A DNA stretch of 64,000 bases from Candidatus Aceula meridiana (GCA_030765185.1 JAVCDE010000018.1:2-64001), one strand, 5' to 3'. Shown: positions 26,078 through 31,400, numbered from the stretch's first letter. Program-made: numbers and translations. The notes: generated by a model from the letters alone, not told the origin.

Positions 26078-27112
26078 TTACCGCAAGGCGTATTCAGACC
26101 CATCAAATGCTAATATTGGCCCAAAAATAAATGGCAAGAAAATCAACCCGAGTCCAAAGAAAGCACCTTTTCCAAAGTTTTTTGCAATACCAATCATAAT
26201 GATAAAATAAAAAATAATACTTACATAAGGAACAAAAAATAGCAACAGCCACCAGCCCGGCTTACCGGCAATCTTACATTGAACATACTGGCCATAAATA
26301 GGAATAAGTTGCGACCATCCCGGATATCCGGCTTTGTTGCAAATTATCCACCAACAAATAATTGTAAAAAAGACAAAAATAGCGCCAAAAATAAAAGGAA
26401 TGATCGAACCAGACTTATTTGATTTTAGAGAGAAAATTTTAGCCGACTGCGCAGATTCATCATTCTCAGCCCGTTCTTTAAAACTCTTGGCTTCTAAAAT
26501 TTTCCGTGCATAAGCTGGGTCACTCTTAGCTCTCGCACGAACGCGATCACCAAAGAAATCTACAATAAAACCTACGAACGGAATCTTCTTGTCTTTAAGA
26601 AACTGTTTCATCTGGCTTAAGTCTTGTTGAATCCTACGTTCTATCTTACTAGCAGGATCAAGATCGTCAAAGTCATCTTCTTGCGGCAATTGTGTCGCAG
26701 AGGCATCTGGGGCTTCCTCTAAAATAGGCTCATCAGAGGCTTCGTCAGAGATTTCTATTTCTTCGGTTTTCTCAAAGAGAGACGTTAGCTTTTTGGAAAC
26801 ACCATAACTCTCGGCAGACTTCTCTCTTGATTTCTCAAAAATTTCCGAATAATCTTCTTCCTCTTGCGGAAAAACTTCTAGCTTCGTCTCTTCCTCAGGA
26901 TAATCTTGCACATTAGGCACTTCACCGTCTACGGTATCAATTTCATCAAAATAAAACTTTAAGTCCACACCCTCAAAATTAATTTTGACGTATCTATTCG
27001 TCTGCTCAACAATTTCGCCCTCAACAGACAGCCCGGACTTCAGCTCAATCTTAGCTGCATAAGCATTTGCCGAAACAAATAATACTAATAAAAAAAATAA
27101 AATTTTTTTCAT
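26078..27112 (-). CDS. Secreted protein with a C-terminal DUF5684-like membrane domain (tandem paralogue 1, with an acidic linker)
   Basis: Signal peptide plus a conserved ~45-aa N-domain (AAKIELKSGLSVEGEIVEQTNRYVKINFEGVDLKFYFDEID). C-terminal CNKAGYPGWSQLIPIYGQYVQCKIAGKPGWWLLLFFVP...NFGKGAFFGLGLIFLPFIFGPILAF. Confidence 0.6.
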   Translation of the reverse strand: MKKILFFLLVLFVSANAYAAKIELKSGLSVEGEIVEQTNRYVKINFEGVDLKFYFDEIDTVDGEVPNVQDYPEEETKLEVFPQEEEDYSEIFEKSREKSAESYGVSKKLTSLFEKTEEIEISDEASDEPILEEAPDASATQLPQEDDFDDLDPASKIERRIQQDLSQMKQFLKDKKIPFVGFIVDFFGDRVRARAKSDPAYARKILEAKSFKERAENDESAQSAKIFSLKSNKSGSIIPFIFGAIFVFFTIICWWIICNKAGYPGWSQLIPIYGQYVQCKIAGKPGWWLLLFFVPYVSIIFYFIIMIGIAKNFGKGAFFGLGLIFLPFIFGPILAFDGSEYALR

Positions 27113-27127
27113 ATTTTGCCTTAATTC

Positions 27128-27856
27128 TTATGTTACAGCTTCTGGAGCTTTTTCGGATTCATTGCTCATATACTGGGAATTATCAAATGCCAATATCGGC
27201 CAGAAAATAAACGGCAAGAAAATCAATCCAAGACCAAACCCAACACCTTTACCAAAATTTCTAGCGATGCCAATATATACGGCAAATGCTACAATAATAC
27301 TCACGATAGGGACAAAAAACAACAAAAGCCACCAGCCCGGCTTACCGGCAATCTTACACTGTACATATACACCATAAAAAGGAACAAGCTGAGACCATCC
27401 CGGATATCCAGCCTTATTGCAAACTTTCCAAGTAGAAACAAGAATAAGAAGTACAAAAATTAAACCAAACACAAACTTCACTATCGCCTCTTGCAAAGAA
27501 ATCTTGCCTTCGCCCTCATTTGTTTTCTGAAGTTGTTTGAGAATTGAAACAAAATCCGCTGGAGCTTTATAAGGTTCAGCAGGCGCTTGAGATGCAGGCA
27601 AAAGTTCCCTACCTTGATCCGGTATTAAAGCCTTTTGAGCCTCAAGGTCAGCATCATTAATAGGGCCTTCTTCAATGCTTTCAATTTCGTTAAAATAAAA
27701 TTTTGCATTGTCACCTCGAAAATTGATTTCAACGTATTGATCTGTTTTTTCGATAATATCGCAAGTGATAACTGCCCCATTTTTAAGTTGAATTTTTGCC
27801 GCGTGTGCGTTTGTGACGATTAATGCAATAATCAAAAATAATAAAATTTTTTTCAT
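27128..27856 (-). CDS. Secreted protein with a C-terminal DUF5684-like membrane domain (tandem paralogue 2)
   Basis: Same N-domain (AAKIQLKNGAVITCDIIEKTDQYVEINFRGDNAKFYFNEIE) and C-terminal CNKAGYPGWSQLVPFYGVYVQCKIAGKPGWWLLLFFVP...NFGKGVGFGLGLIFLPFIFWPILAF. Confidence 0.6.
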   Translation of the reverse strand: MKKILLFLIIALIVTNAHAAKIQLKNGAVITCDIIEKTDQYVEINFRGDNAKFYFNEIESIEEGPINDADLEAQKALIPDQGRELLPASQAPAEPYKAPADFVSILKQLQKTNEGEGKISLQEAIVKFVFGLIFVLLILVSTWKVCNKAGYPGWSQLVPFYGVYVQCKIAGKPGWWLLLFFVPIVSIIVAFAVYIGIARNFGKGVGFGLGLIFLPFIFWPILAFDNSQYMSNESEKAPEAVT

Positions 27857-27963: not shown

Positions 27964-28001
27964 GATTTTCAAAAAAGAAAGCCAAGGCCTTTAGACCTTG
28001 G
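27964..28001 (-). terminator. Rho-independent terminator of the toxin operon
   Basis: On the minus strand: hairpin ccaaggtctaaaggccttgg followed by ctttcttttttg. Confidence 0.6.
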
Positions 28002-28030: not shown

Positions 28031-28417
28031 TTAAGGCTTTATATATTTTACCTTTCCATCGATAAAATAAAAAAAATAACTATATACATAATTTGAAAAG
28101 AATGGAATAAATCCCTTTGAATACTTATAAATCCAAACTTCTTCTGCCGTGGCATATTTACAATCTGACTTTTTGCATCCAGGTGTTAAAAGAACTGGAA
28201 TATCCTCCCATTTTCCATGAGGTTTTCCGAATATTTCTCTGATTTGATCTTTGGTTTTCTCCATGTAACCCTGAAGCTCATAATGCCTTTTTTCCTGATC
28301 TTCAATGTATTTATTTGTCTGTCCTTCTGAAGAGTATTGCACCCAATCTCCATAACCACATCCTACGATTAAGATGGAAAGGCTTAACAACAATCCTAAG
28401 CATAAAAGCTTCTTCAT
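28031..28417 (-). CDS. Small lipoprotein, a candidate immunity protein for the upstream RHS toxin
   Basis: The start was refined to the internal Met (MKKLLCLGLLLSLSILIVGCG, a lipobox IVGC) with an AGGAAG RBS 9 nt upstream. It begins 14 nt after the RHS stop. Confidence 0.5.
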   Translation of the reverse strand: MKKLLCLGLLLSLSILIVGCGYGDWVQYSSEGQTNKYIEDQEKRHYELQGYMEKTKDQIREIFGKPHGKWEDIPVLLTPGCKKSDCKYATAEEVWIYKYSKGFIPFFSNYVYSYFFYFIDGKVKYIKP

Positions 28418-28430
28418 ATTATAATACTTC

Positions 28431-31400
28431 CTAAATTCCATAATTTGAATGGACTGAGAATCCAAACATTGCTCCTGCTCCAACAGCCCCGCCTGCAATA
28501 TTGATTGGATTTAAATTTGGCCCGACTAAATTAATTGGATCAAAAATATGATTCATACATCCTGTCATGTTGGCACCACCCATCCAAGAAGATAAAGCCG
28601 CCATGGGCTGGCTGATAGCTGCGGCCATATAGGTTACTGTTGAACCACCAGCTAACTGCCTTCCCGTTAGGCCAAGATTCATCAAGGCATTTGAGGTTGT
28701 TATTGTTCCTTGGCTGTGTGGAATAATGTTTATTGGTCCACCAATTTTTGCTAGGCCATCAGCGAATTGTCTATCCAAAGAGCTTGTTCGAAATATTTTC
28801 TGAAATATACTCTCTGTAAAGTCAGCGATGCTACCTGCTGAAGGATTATAATACAGATAGGAAGCACCATGCTTTTGTAATGCATCTTTGGCAGCATCAG
28901 GAAGCGAAGTATTAACTCCGTTTGTGTAGAGGGTGTTTCCTGACGGGATCTCCGAAGGATCAATGCTTTCATAAACAAGCCCGCTGTCTCCTCCAAAAAC
29001 CCTGTAGAAACCCATTCTTTTATCTTCTTCCGAAATCCAAGCAGCGATTCCTTTGCCAACATTCCACGCGAAGTTTATTGCCGATAATCCCATCGCCGCA
29101 TAAGTGAATCCTTGGCTTATAGTAGGGTCTCTCGACGTTGCACTAGCTACTTGAGAGCCCAGGCTCATCCATGCAGAAGCCTTTAAAAGAACCATTCCTT
29201 GTGCAGTCGATCCAATAGTTCCTCCGGACATGCCTCCCATTACAGCTCCGATCAAAACACTCTGCCATTGAACCTTTCCGGTTTGTTGATAAGAAGATAC
29301 TGCTCCGGCAATGGCACCAATAATCGCTCCAATAATTAACCAAGGAAAATTTCCACTCGGATCGGTATAGCACAACGGTGAATTATAAACATAGCTATAA
29401 CGATTCAAGGACTGTGAATTCGTCGGATTAGGCATCATCGGATCTGCAGTCAAAAACCTGCCAATGAGCGGATTATAATACCTAGCTCCATAATAGTATA
29501 GGCCTGTCTCATCATCAAGCTTTTTACCTGTGAAATAAAAATGAGAAACTTGTGATGAATCTCCGTACATCTCATGGCGAGAAAAAAGACCAAACGGTAA
29601 ATATTCACAAAGCTCTTTAACCTCTCCCTGAGCGTCTGTTGTTGCGTTGATGCTGCCAAGATGATTATTAAAATAGTACATAATTTCACCATTCTTAACA
29701 CTAGCGATACGCCTATTTCCCAAATAAATATATGTTAATGGCCCATCTGAATTCTCTTCGTAAAGCGACCCTATGTATTGAGTTGTTTTCTTTCCAATAG
29801 CTATGCTGACGGATGAATTAACATGGGAATCCCCGGCGAATTTTCCTAGATCGAAGAACTTGTTCTTTCCATTATTGTCATAACATTGAGCACCTCCTTG
29901 ATAAACTATTTTCTGAGTTCTCCCTCCCTCTCCGTCGTAGACATATTGAGCTTTAAGCGCAGAATTTTTCTTGACTTCAACAAGCCGGTTCTCAGCATCA
30001 TAATTATATTGCCAAAACTTACCTTCATCATCTATCATTTCAATCATATTGCCGTTTTCATCATAAGAAAAAACAGTTCCATCTGATAATGACGTTACCG
30101 CGTGTGGTCCAGCGCCATTTTCTCCGTAGGCATACGCTTTTCCATCTTTCTCAATAATATTTCCAATCGCATCATATTGATAAGTTTTTATTCCATAATT
30201 CCCTTGTGCTTGAATCAAACGATTCAATGCGTCGTAAGAGAAATATTGAGAATCTGTATTTACGCTATCGACAATCATCTTGATGTTGCCAACACTATCA
30301 TACGAGTATTCTAAGTCCTGGATTGCTTCGCCTTCAGGGTTAATTGTCAAAATTTTCTGAAGACGTAATGTATCCTCCTCATAGGTATATGTTGTCATCA
30401 TTCCATTCTCGTATTCAATCTTTGTTATCTGCCCGGGCGCGTCATATTCAACATTACGGATAAAAATCTCATCACCTAAATCTTTGCCCGGGACAGAATC
30501 ATAGCAATGAACAAGAGTAATATAATCCGTTGTATTATTTTTAGGATAGCGCCGGATCTCTCCTTTCCAAGCAAAAGTATTTGTGTTTTGCTGCCAGCTT
30601 TCATTATTAATAATTGTTAAATTCTTATTAATACTTATCGTCCCCGGGCTACCATCGGTAACAAAGCCTTCTTCTTCCCACCAATTTCCCTGATCATCTA
30701 ATGCCGCCAATTCCATTGAATCTTCATCAACAATAGAAAAATAATATTTATAATCATAATCATCATTATTAAAAGTTGGGATAGGGTCTGTCCATGAAAA
30801 ACTAACTTCATAGCTATCTTCACGATCAACAAGTGGATGATAATGATTTGTTGTCATCTCGACATGAAGCCCTGTTCCGACCTCAACCGGAAATTCTAAT
30901 GAAAGCGGAGTAAAAAAACTCCAAGAATTAAAAGGATTATACGAACGTCCAGGATGAACACGCCTTAACTGGGCAACCCATACATAGTCAGTAATCAAAT
31001 CGCCATTATATTCATCGTATGCGATAAGCTCTTTTGACTCAATATAATCTCCGTTTGGCTGATCACTTGGCATATTAACATCACCGTACCAATTACCATA
31101 GGATTCTGGATCTGCGGCTGCTAAATTTTGATATCCTGAGATATTTTCTTTTAATGCATAAAACAACCGATAATCTTCTGCAGGCACAACAGGAAGCCCA
31201 TTCCATGAAATATCAAAATCATATTCAGCGCGAACTCCTGGATGAGGATTTTGAGGAGAAACAGAAAAATTAAACTCAGGTGGCTCGGCAGCTGTCGTAT
31301 CGATTAAAATCTGAAAAGCAGTCGTGTAGGTTCCGCTATCAAACTGGTTATATGTTTGACCTGGAACAATGTGGCGAACCTCGACTATCCACCAATAGTT

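Follow-up and report, generated by a model that had tools for sequence, protein, structure and literature searches.

Does the C-terminal end of a 2578-residue RHS protein encoded by Candidatus Aceula meridiana (phylum Omnitrophota) carry a toxic hydrolase, and is the small lipoprotein encoded directly after it the matching immunity protein? We addressed this question in a 64,000-nucleotide (nt) stretch of DNA from this organism (the window), in which the features of the RHS gene all lie on the minus strand. A first-pass annotation had described a hypervariable toxin domain with two hydrolase motifs, FGGDSG and IIPHSQGT, behind a DPxG cleavage site, and had proposed the lipoprotein as a candidate immunity protein. 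In our analysis we observed the domain architecture of the RHS protein, the family to which its cargo belongs, the invariant residues and fold class of that family, and a conserved pairing of toxin and partner genes. We consider it probable that the cargo is an esterase or lipase toxin that acts in the periplasm or on the membrane and is neutralized by the periplasmic lipoprotein, in analogy to the Tle/Tli pairs. The gene and the parts of its cargo are as follows.

28431..36167, minus strand: RHS/YD-repeat cocoon protein, a TcB/TcC-like fusion of 2578 residues (open reading frame [ORF] with Pfam and NCBIfam domains)
28434..29339, minus strand: whole cargo, 302 residues (residues 2277-2578), beginning LIIGAIIGAIAGAVSS
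29025..29339, minus strand: first part of the cargo, residues 2277-2381, a Gly/Ala/Ser-rich helical region (composition and AlphaFold2 [AF2] model)
28434..29024, minus strand: second part of the cargo, residues 2382-2578, the predicted alpha/beta-hydrolase core, modeled with a predicted local distance difference test score (pLDDT) of >90 (family alignment, AF2, and fold matches)

Searches with the cargo alone returned little. Pfam and NCBIfam (E ≤ 1) gave nothing except a match to Gly-zipper_YMGG below threshold (17.3 versus 28.9 bits), comparison of the single sequence with PDB sequences gave 0 matches at E ≤ 10, and a single-sequence, word-indexed search of a collection of 5.8 billion proteins returned nothing, the cargo's own protein included. 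A word-indexed profile search yielded 2 proteins only, Gly-rich words having saturated its candidate list. When 1.84 billion cluster representatives were searched exhaustively with HMMER, however, 129 proteins were recovered at E ≤ 1e-3, with 52 of them reaching E ≤ 1e-10 and 9 reaching E ≤ 1e-30; the clusters are drawn at 50% identity, and the count of 129 clusters is a minimum. Among the first ~120 hits, judged by the coordinates of the best stretch, the family match ended no more than ~90 residues from the C terminus in all but three (P0107, P0109, and P0121). Of 29 members with more than 600 residues, 24 have the Rhs core and a DPxG motif upstream of the domain, and SpvB, TcdB, and RHS domains are present in those long members for which a locus was retrieved. 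The portion common to the family is the last ~170 residues. Its named taxa are Omnitrophota, Planctomycetota, and Steroidobacteraceae (Gammaproteobacteria), and the source records call its members just "RHS repeat-associated" or "hypothetical." As judged from these matches, the cargo is a member of a real, widespread family, and its copy in the window has no Pfam or NCBIfam model.

Conservation was read from an alignment of 55 family sequences with a mean column identity of 18%; adding 2276 to the cargo numbering gives the numbering of the whole protein. Six residues (G141, D173, S209, G211, D267, and H297 of the cargo) are invariant in 55 of 55 sequences, and N165, E176, Q210, and P278 are each shared by ≥90% of them. 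The positions of the putative active site and of the conserved ADxxES motif are listed here.

28704..28727, minus strand: IIPHSQGT, the nucleophile elbow, with the codon of Ser2485 at 28713..28715; Ser and Gly invariant, Gln in 52 of 55; strand 204-208, helix 210-224
28539..28541, minus strand: Asp2543 (in FDPIN), candidate catalytic acid; invariant, in the loop that follows the final strand of the core
28449..28451, minus strand: His2573 (in SVHS), candidate catalytic base, 5 residues from the C terminus; invariant, pairs with the catalytic-region His of 7cc4
28917..28922, minus strand: N2416-G2417 (the TNG after the first core strand), putative oxyanion-hole turn; Gly invariant, Asn in 49 of 55
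28821..28823, minus strand: D2449 of the ADxxES motif; Asp invariant, E2452 in 50 of 55

The elbow of the family follows the pattern [AGP]-[HYF]-S-Q-G, and the order along the chain is nucleophile, acid, and His (S209, D267, H297), as in alpha/beta-hydrolases. AF2 run on the single sequence without an alignment reached a pLDDT of 35, and the model made with the family alignment was used instead. In this model, which has a mean pLDDT of 83.8 and 163 residues at ≥90, four helices at cargo residues 2-102 (of lower confidence) are followed by a beta-hairpin at 110-126 with FGGDSG at its turn and by five further strands that alternate with helices. Ser209 occupies the strand-to-helix turn between strand 204-208 and helix 210-224, Asp267 comes after the last strand, and His297 is near the C terminus. 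From conservation and the model, we assign to the core, with high confidence, a predicted Ser2485-Asp2543-His2573 triad. The proposal that IIPHSQGT is a nucleophile elbow is thereby supported by a Ser and a Gly invariant in all 55 sequences, by their location at a strand-helix junction, and by the hydrolase fold matches described below.

We compared the model with PDB structures by Foldseek, and the top 50 matches were all alpha/beta-hydrolases, mainly cutinases, PETases, carboxylesterases, and thioesterases, with one peptidase (DPP-IV). The family profile run against PDB sequences matched a cutinase of carbohydrate esterase family 5 (CE5) at E = 0.003, as well as acetyl-xylan esterases, a cutinase-like enzyme, and many lipases (range, E = 0.003-0.04). 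In every one of these profile matches, the G-[HY]-S-Q-G elbow is the aligned site, and in the match to 7cc4 the C-terminal His is paired too. Pfam matches of family members were weak and solely to alpha/beta-hydrolase families (Tle3, DUF900, DUF676, Ser_hydrolase, and Abhydrolase_1/6). One member (P0081) passed the DUF900 gathering score (21.2 versus 20.5 bits), and Tle3 (PF24322) was matched below threshold by four members, at best with E = 5e-4 and only at the elbow; the matches listed with scores reached ~14 bits versus a cut-off of 27. Remote-homology comparison of the cargo, of the kind that the first-pass annotation had suggested, returned a hydrolase fold and hydrolase profiles, and no non-hydrolase toxin fold among the listed matches. 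On these comparisons, we classify the core with high confidence as a compact and divergent alpha/beta-hydrolase. The fold class is well supported and the specific enzyme family is not; we are only moderately confident that lipids are the substrate and that the core works as a lipase or esterase.

A different substrate is the alternative that survives best. The same fold and triad could act on a non-lipid component of the envelope, such as peptidoglycan-linked or O-acetyl esters, the acyl chains of lipoproteins or lipopolysaccharide, or protein, with the lipoprotein still serving as immunity protein; we regard this as possible, though on the unlikely side. It would fit with the nearest PDB profile matches, which are carbohydrate esterases and cutinases (CE5, acetyl-xylan esterase) and not phospholipases, with the thioesterases and peptidases among the fold matches, and with the one third of members that lack a hydrophobic pre-domain. 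In addition, Tox-ABhydrolase-2 is not assignable to lipids according to Zhang et al. (PMC3482391). Pointing back to lipids are the weak Pfam matches, which are of the lipase type (Tle3, DUF676, DUF900), the Gly-zipper, transmembrane-like pre-domain of the window protein and of 32 of 51 members, and the G-H-S-Q-G elbow, which is typical of lipases and cutinases.

We further examined the gene downstream of the RHS gene and its surroundings, which contain the following features.

28031..28417, minus strand: lipoprotein of 128 residues (129 codons including the stop) with lipobox IVGC and Cys20 at 28358..28360, candidate immunity protein (ORF; conserved CxxxxC pair)
28427..28432, minus strand: AGGAAG, Shine-Dalgarno-like, 9 nt before the lipoprotein ATG and in overlap with the stop codon of the RHS gene (read from the sequence)
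28001..27982, minus strand: intrinsic-terminator-like hairpin (8 bp, 5 of them GC) with a T-run, 29 nt past the lipoprotein stop

The lipobox and the tight spacing were as first described, and only the size given for the protein, 129 residues, needs correction to 128. The protein is 100% identical to NCBI protein P9M07_02800. Between the RHS stop and the lipoprotein ATG lie 13 nt (the ATG is at the 14th nt). The terminator reported after the lipoprotein gene is also there, in that a hairpin and T-run follow the stop, and this terminator-like element would end the RHS-lipoprotein transcription unit. Because the 13-nt spacer holds a Shine-Dalgarno-like sequence and the terminator comes right after the lipoprotein gene, the two genes are likely co-transcribed.

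A word-indexed search of the 5.8 billion proteins with the lipoprotein returned itself and one relative at 48% identity. This lone relative (locus L001) directly follows an orthologous RHS gene, whose shell is ~75-80% and whose cargo is ~85% identical to those of the window. No relatives were found in a scan of genome contigs with the single protein or in a scan of metagenome contigs with the A5 alignment. The possibility that the lipoprotein is a conserved housekeeping protein found without RHS neighbors, which had been raised as a test of the proposal, was not borne out, as the only relative that the word-indexed search returned adjoins an RHS gene; we rejected a housekeeping role on this basis.

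To extend the comparison, 10 toxin loci were examined, namely, the window, L001, and eight more chosen for diverse family members. At every one of the 10, the toxin gene is immediately followed by a gene whose small product has a hydrophobic leader and a Cys near its N terminus, and in 7 of the 10 this product has a canonical lipobox. In nine loci, toxin and partner genes overlap or are separated by at most 36 nt; in the tenth, the gap is 273 nt. Six partners (92-136 residues) can be aligned as one family with the pattern GKxKxxVxxxFGxP...EEWxY...FxF; five of the six are linked by BLASTP, and the one from L005 is marginal (E about 0.1). Three other partners (about 200-225 residues) form a second family, paired with toxins of a more distant subfamily. 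Between the window and L001, the lipoproteins are 48% identical, versus about 85% for the toxins. Fast divergence, a switch of family along with the toxin subfamily, and tight gene coupling make up a signature that suggests periplasmic immunity. The presence of a leader-plus-Cys protein at 10 of 10 loci and its faster divergence than the toxin agree with the proposal that the lipoprotein is the cognate partner of the toxin.

The lipoprotein itself had no match in Pfam. A profile of six homologues run against the PDB gave only non-significant matches (E = 0.17-1 overall), among them BamE chains (E = 0.25-0.31) and a BLIP-like protein (E = 1), and the pattern GKxKxxVxxxFGxP...EEWxY...FxF that it shares with BamE/SmpA_OmlA is only suggestive. 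These matches bear on a second alternative, in which the lipoprotein is not an immunity protein and acts as an export, release, or anchoring factor (a bacteriocin-release protein, a spanin, or an outer-membrane dock) or as a chaperone of the cargo. Small lipoproteins act as release factors in colicin operons, a Sec-exported RHS protein needs a route through the outer membrane and none is evident, and BamE, to which the resemblance is non-significant (E = 0.25), is an outer-membrane assembly lipoprotein. We nevertheless judge this alternative very unlikely. Compared with the toxin, the lipoproteins change in sequence much more rapidly, and they belong to two or more unrelated families whose distribution follows the toxin subfamilies; immunity proteins typically behave in this way, whereas components of machinery usually do not. 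With 92-225 residues and patterns that suggest a folded domain, the partners are also unlike lysis peptides of ~30-60 residues, and no holin or endolysin gene was present among the ORFs scanned immediately around the RHS gene.

A third alternative concerns the part of the cargo that precedes the core. Gly, Ala, and Ser make up 43% of cargo residues 1-105. Of the helices in this stretch, the first is transmembrane-like, with a Kyte-Doolittle mean over 15 residues of 2.4, and the three others are amphipathic. The glycine-zipper hydrophobic start described in the first-pass annotation therefore stands as far as the transmembrane-like helix is concerned, with the Gly-zipper_YMGG match of Pfam remaining sub-threshold. 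Across the family, the linker from DPxG to the core has a median length of 134 residues and contains a transmembrane-like segment in 32 of 51 members. The prefix is thus a common accessory, plausibly one for membrane association, and does not represent the toxic principle that the family conserves. Tse5 shows that a cargo which inserts into membranes can be carried by an Rhs shell (PMC10684867), and the N-terminal Gly-zipper part of the cargo studied here might likewise be the killer, a pore-former or depolarizer like Tse5-CT, with the hydrolase in an accessory role. Such a function would be in keeping with the Gly-zipper helix at the start of the cargo, with the composition of the first 105 residues, and with the known delivery of pore-forming cargo by an Rhs shell (PMC10684867). 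It is, however, the hydrolase core with its triad that is conserved across the family, whereas the pre-domain varies and has no hydrophobic segment in 19 of 51 members. Since the window cargo moreover has just one strongly hydrophobic helix and its pre-domain matches no PDB chain by sequence, we rate this alternative as very unlikely indeed.

The remaining motif of the cargo is FGGDSG.

28980..28997, minus strand: FGGDSG, residues 2391-2396, a non-conserved beta-hairpin turn (alignment and AF2)

Both strings noted at the outset, FGGDSG and IIPHSQGT, are present in the sequence at the coordinates listed here. As bare motifs, HSQG and FGGDSG are not above chance: the cargo contains 3 small-x-S-x-small motifs, versus 4.6 ± 2.1 in shuffled sequences, and the string GDS arises in 14% of cargo shuffles. 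HSQG was singled out because of its conservation in the family and the structure model, and by these alone. The reading of FGGDSG as an SGNH/GDSL motif did not hold up, as its Ser is unique to the window sequence, with gaps in 29 of the 55 sequences in that column and no other Ser, and the closest orthologue (L001) reads FQGEDG at this position. An SGNH/GDSL identity of the domain was likewise rejected, with no SGNH protein among the listed fold matches and with the invariant Asp and His 30 residues apart and not in a DxxH arrangement. That the two strings, which do both occur, jointly form an esterase site has next to no likelihood when Ser2395 is peculiar to this sequence, FGGDSG lies in a hairpin turn outside the conserved core, and the listed fold matches are all alpha/beta-hydrolases; a single Ser-Asp-His site was found in place of the composite one.

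We return to the reading of the cargo as a lipase-type toxin with a lipoprotein immunity partner, from which we infer the cleavage, substrate, site of action, toxicity, and immunity set out here. The RHS protein would be exported by Sec, as predicted from a signal peptide read from the sequence. Its shell would enclose the last 302 residues, and the aspartyl-protease activity of the Rhs core would cut at DPSG. The cargo would then be delivered to the periplasm of a diderm (Gram-negative-type) target, by a route that the scheme does not specify. There, the Gly-zipper prefix (~105 residues) would take the enzyme onto or into the membrane, and the ~195-residue core, with Ser2485-Asp2543-His2573 and the N-G oxyanion turn, would hydrolyze the esters of envelope lipids from the periplasmic side as a phospholipase or esterase. 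In the periplasm of the producer, the co-transcribed lipoprotein would neutralize the enzyme by direct binding and so protect the producer and its kin.

Several points weigh against this scheme. The structural matches are weak: among the top 50 of Foldseek, the best E value was 4.6e-3, the template-modeling (TM) score was at most 0.43, and the probability went up to 0.91, and the best PDB profile match had an E value of just 0.003, with no strong profile match. The AF2 model shows no strand between the Asp and the His, their spacing of 30 residues is unlike that of cutinases, and the invariant D2449 of ADxxES has no place in the proposed triad. Alpha/beta-hydrolases include peptidases, thioesterases, and carbohydrate esterases as well. 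The absence of the hydrophobic pre-domain from 19 of 51 members means that membrane targeting is not universal in the family. For the partners, the lipoboxes of L005, L007, and L009 are atypical, the start of the L010 protein appears truncated, and it is gene pairing and localization signals alone that suggest an immunity role. Lastly, the scheme does not account for how a Sec-exported cocoon would cross the outer membrane of the producer and reach a target; the window lacks a gene of TcA size, and the RHS protein lacks a PAAR domain.

The shell of the RHS protein provides the following landmarks.

36093..36167, minus strand: N-terminal signal peptide, MRYQKFFIILFVAMFIGLSTVNLSA, with cleavage before KG (GTG start and cleavage site read from the sequence, no prediction tool)
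29352..29603, minus strand: Rhs-associated core, residues 2189-2272 (TIGR03696, 72.3 bits versus a cut-off of 32.5, profile positions 1-75 of 76)
29352..29363, minus strand: terminal DPSG, the cargo boundary (read from the sequence)

The order of domains is a Sec-type signal peptide, SpvB, TcdB_toxin_midN, an FG-GAP propeller, RHS/YD repeats, the Rhs-associated core, and the toxin cargo, which is the TcB/TcC-type "BC cocoon" architecture. The repeats matched PF05593 in 8 stretches (E = 1.7e-38) and TIGR01643 (E = 1.4e-20). The core holds the aspartyl autoprotease motifs DDETG...RYYNPLIGRFLTADP (RFLTADP) and ends in ...YTDPSG, and the autoproteolytic cut at DPSG is predicted from these motifs. 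A TcA-sized partner gene (about 2500 residues) was not found, the RHS gene being the sole ORF of >1100 residues within the 64-kb window. In the RHS protein, which was the one gene product of the window examined for links to a type VI secretion system (T6SS), Pfam found no PAAR domain.

Two side observations concern the same gene. The shell contains an insert of ~550 residues (residues ~1400-1950; ~30300..31970, minus strand) built of three repeated modules of ~150 residues with D(I/L)SWN...RRVHPG/RHIVPG...; it has no Pfam match in the window protein, relatives match fn3, Laminin_G_3, or LamG there, and it may be a surface-exposed binding module. The word-indexed searches of the 5.8 billion proteins with the cargo did not return the 2578-residue protein of the window, and the adjoining lipoprotein of the same NCBI contig is present in that collection; it may be that the public record lacks an annotation of the RHS gene or lists this gene as a pseudogene.

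We also compared the divergence of shell and cargo. In semi-global alignments of the window protein with 13 long family members, identity was 28-45% in the shell and 28-45% in the hydrolase core. Since shell and core are equally diverged, the cargo has been inherited with its shell and not swapped. Orphan fragments of cargo or Rhs core were absent from the window, where tblastn found the gene itself only. The label "hypervariable" consequently does not suit this cargo in the present lineage, as relatives that share the shell also share the cargo, which has diverged as far as the shell has, and no orphan cassettes accompany the gene.

Several relatives share the neighborhood of the window, with a propeller-like protein of ~550 residues, a Cupin/helix-turn-helix regulator, a response regulator, and seryl-tRNA synthetase (SerRS). 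In the window, the gene for the propeller-like protein, which is signal-anchored and has a weak Sortilin/BNR match, is at 37110..38768 (minus strand). Its counterparts lie upstream of the RHS gene in all four other Omnitrophota-type loci (L003:611-2263, L004:1551-3516, L005:219-2175, and L009:798-2348), with 29-40% identity and E values of 1e-48 to 1e-117. A gene for a secreted Cys-rich protein of ~100-120 residues (GxKYHxxxC...PCxxC) is found at 36774..37085 (minus strand), with counterparts in L004 and L005. Delivery or secretion of the cocoon might involve the propeller-like and Cys-rich proteins as partners, or their position could reflect mere conserved synteny. We think it doubtful, but worth stating, that the conserved Omnitrophota cluster of the ~550-residue propeller-like protein, the ~100-residue Cys-rich protein, the RHS cocoon, and the lipoprotein is a self-contained delivery system that operates without TcA or a T6SS, puts a membrane-inserting lipase into the envelope of prey or of competitors, and carries a fixed, vertically inherited cargo in place of an exchangeable polymorphic tip. 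As Omnitrophota are suspected predators, such a system could be a tool of predation.

Other neighbors are less constant. A gene for an ORF6N/KilA-N-type DNA-binding protein (36183..36707, minus strand; E = 7.6e-36) lies 16 nt upstream of the RHS start; it was seen in the window genome only, relatives having SpoVG or other small genes there, and it may be an insertion derived from a mobile element or phage, or a local regulator. Just past the terminator are two tandem genes for paralogous membrane proteins (26078..27112 and 27128..27856, both minus strand), which have a signal peptide, similar N-terminal stretches of ~60 residues, an acidic linker, and a C-terminal DUF5684, and which do not occur in the related RHS loci examined. 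Genes for IS200/Y1 transposases and a PhdYeFM/ParE toxin-antitoxin pair were located at L001:4584-5174, L001:6821-7321, and L004:17051-17273, and in the closest orthologous locus the transposase and toxin-antitoxin genes are directly downstream of the lipoprotein gene. The 3′ flank of the RHS-lipoprotein unit is therefore variable, and the unit itself is conserved.

The family described here is a previously unmodeled domain of putative Ser-Asp-His hydrolase toxins with at least 129 clusters at 50% identity and two or more families of lipoprotein partners. A profile built from the family alignment (A2) would allow thousands of metagenomic RHS proteins to be annotated. A lipase-like cargo with a hydrophobic prefix would extend the short list of membrane-directed Rhs cargoes, and the locus offers a case in which cargo and shell co-diverge instead of recombining. 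Omnitrophota have been described as a possibly predatory phylum (10.1101/2023.11.21.568195), and the module is a concrete candidate weapon for these uncultured bacteria.

Among known systems, the closest in organization are the T6SS lipases. Tle3 is a phospholipase A1 (PLA1) of adherent-invasive Escherichia coli (AIEC) that is neutralized by the outer-membrane lipoprotein Tli3, which plugs the catalytic cleft of Tle3 (PMC9860674), and Tle1 of Pseudomonas aeruginosa kills when it is membrane associated in the periplasm (PMC13133936). Tle1 to Tle4 and their Tli partners resemble the present pair in having an alpha/beta-hydrolase with a G-x-S-x-G-type Ser and an immunity protein that is encoded next door and resides in the periplasm, Tli3 being a lipoprotein. 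They also have in common a presumed action on the membrane from its periplasmic face. In contrast, the window domain is no member of a Pfam Tle family, its core is much smaller (about 195 residues), and its carrier is an RHS cocoon and not VgrG/PAAR. No Tli3 chain was returned when the profile of the lipoprotein alignment (A3) was compared with PDB sequences. The analogy to Tle/Tli drawn in the first-pass annotation is nonetheless apt at the level of organization, in that a lipase-type toxin adjoins a periplasmic or lipoprotein partner (a leader plus Cys at 10 of 10 loci).

Tox-ABhydrolase-1, -2, and -3 are C-terminal alpha/beta-hydrolase domains of polymorphic toxins, including RHS proteins, for which membrane-lipid targets were predicted (Zhang et al. 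2012, PMC3482391). The immunity partners of Tox-ABhydrolase-2 and -3 are SUKH, Imm66, and Imm69, and the sole lipoprotein immunity family of that survey, Imm65, belongs to Tox-JAB-1 (PMC3482391). By contrast with these published descriptions, the partners here are lipoproteins. Cutinases and CE5 enzymes (4psc, 1bs9, 7cc4, and 4oyy) share with the window core a minimal alpha/beta-hydrolase fold with a small parallel sheet, the G-Y/H-S-Q-G elbow, and a His near the C terminus. The matches to them are marginal (E = 0.003-0.04, TM score ≤0.43), the candidate acid of the family lies 30 residues before the His and was not placed on the cutinase Asp by the profile alignment, and the NP..G..AD..ES block is both extra and conserved. 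The setting differs as well, being that of a bacterial toxin with a putative immunity gene.

With respect to the carrier, Tse5 of P. aeruginosa is similar in that its Rhs shell encloses and chaperones a hydrophobic, membrane-active C-terminal fragment released by autoproteolysis (PMC10684867). It differs in that Tse5-CT forms pores, has no enzyme domain, and reaches its target through a T6SS, whereas the hydrophobic part here is just a prefix to a hydrolase, and no sequence similarity between them was found. The BC subcomplex of Tc toxins (TcB-TcC of Photorhabdus and Yersinia) shares SpvB, TcdB_midN, FG-GAP, RHS, and the Rhs core with the window protein; the window is without a TcA-sized gene, and the presence of a putative immunity gene indicates a bacterial and not an insect target. 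Sec-dependent YD-repeat toxins such as WapA of Bacillus subtilis carry a signal peptide, as does the RHS protein studied here. Set beside these systems, the description of the pair as an undescribed module is correct in part: the domain family and its partner families appear to be new, and the kind of module is already represented by the Tox-ABhydrolase toxins and by T6SS lipases with lipoprotein immunity.

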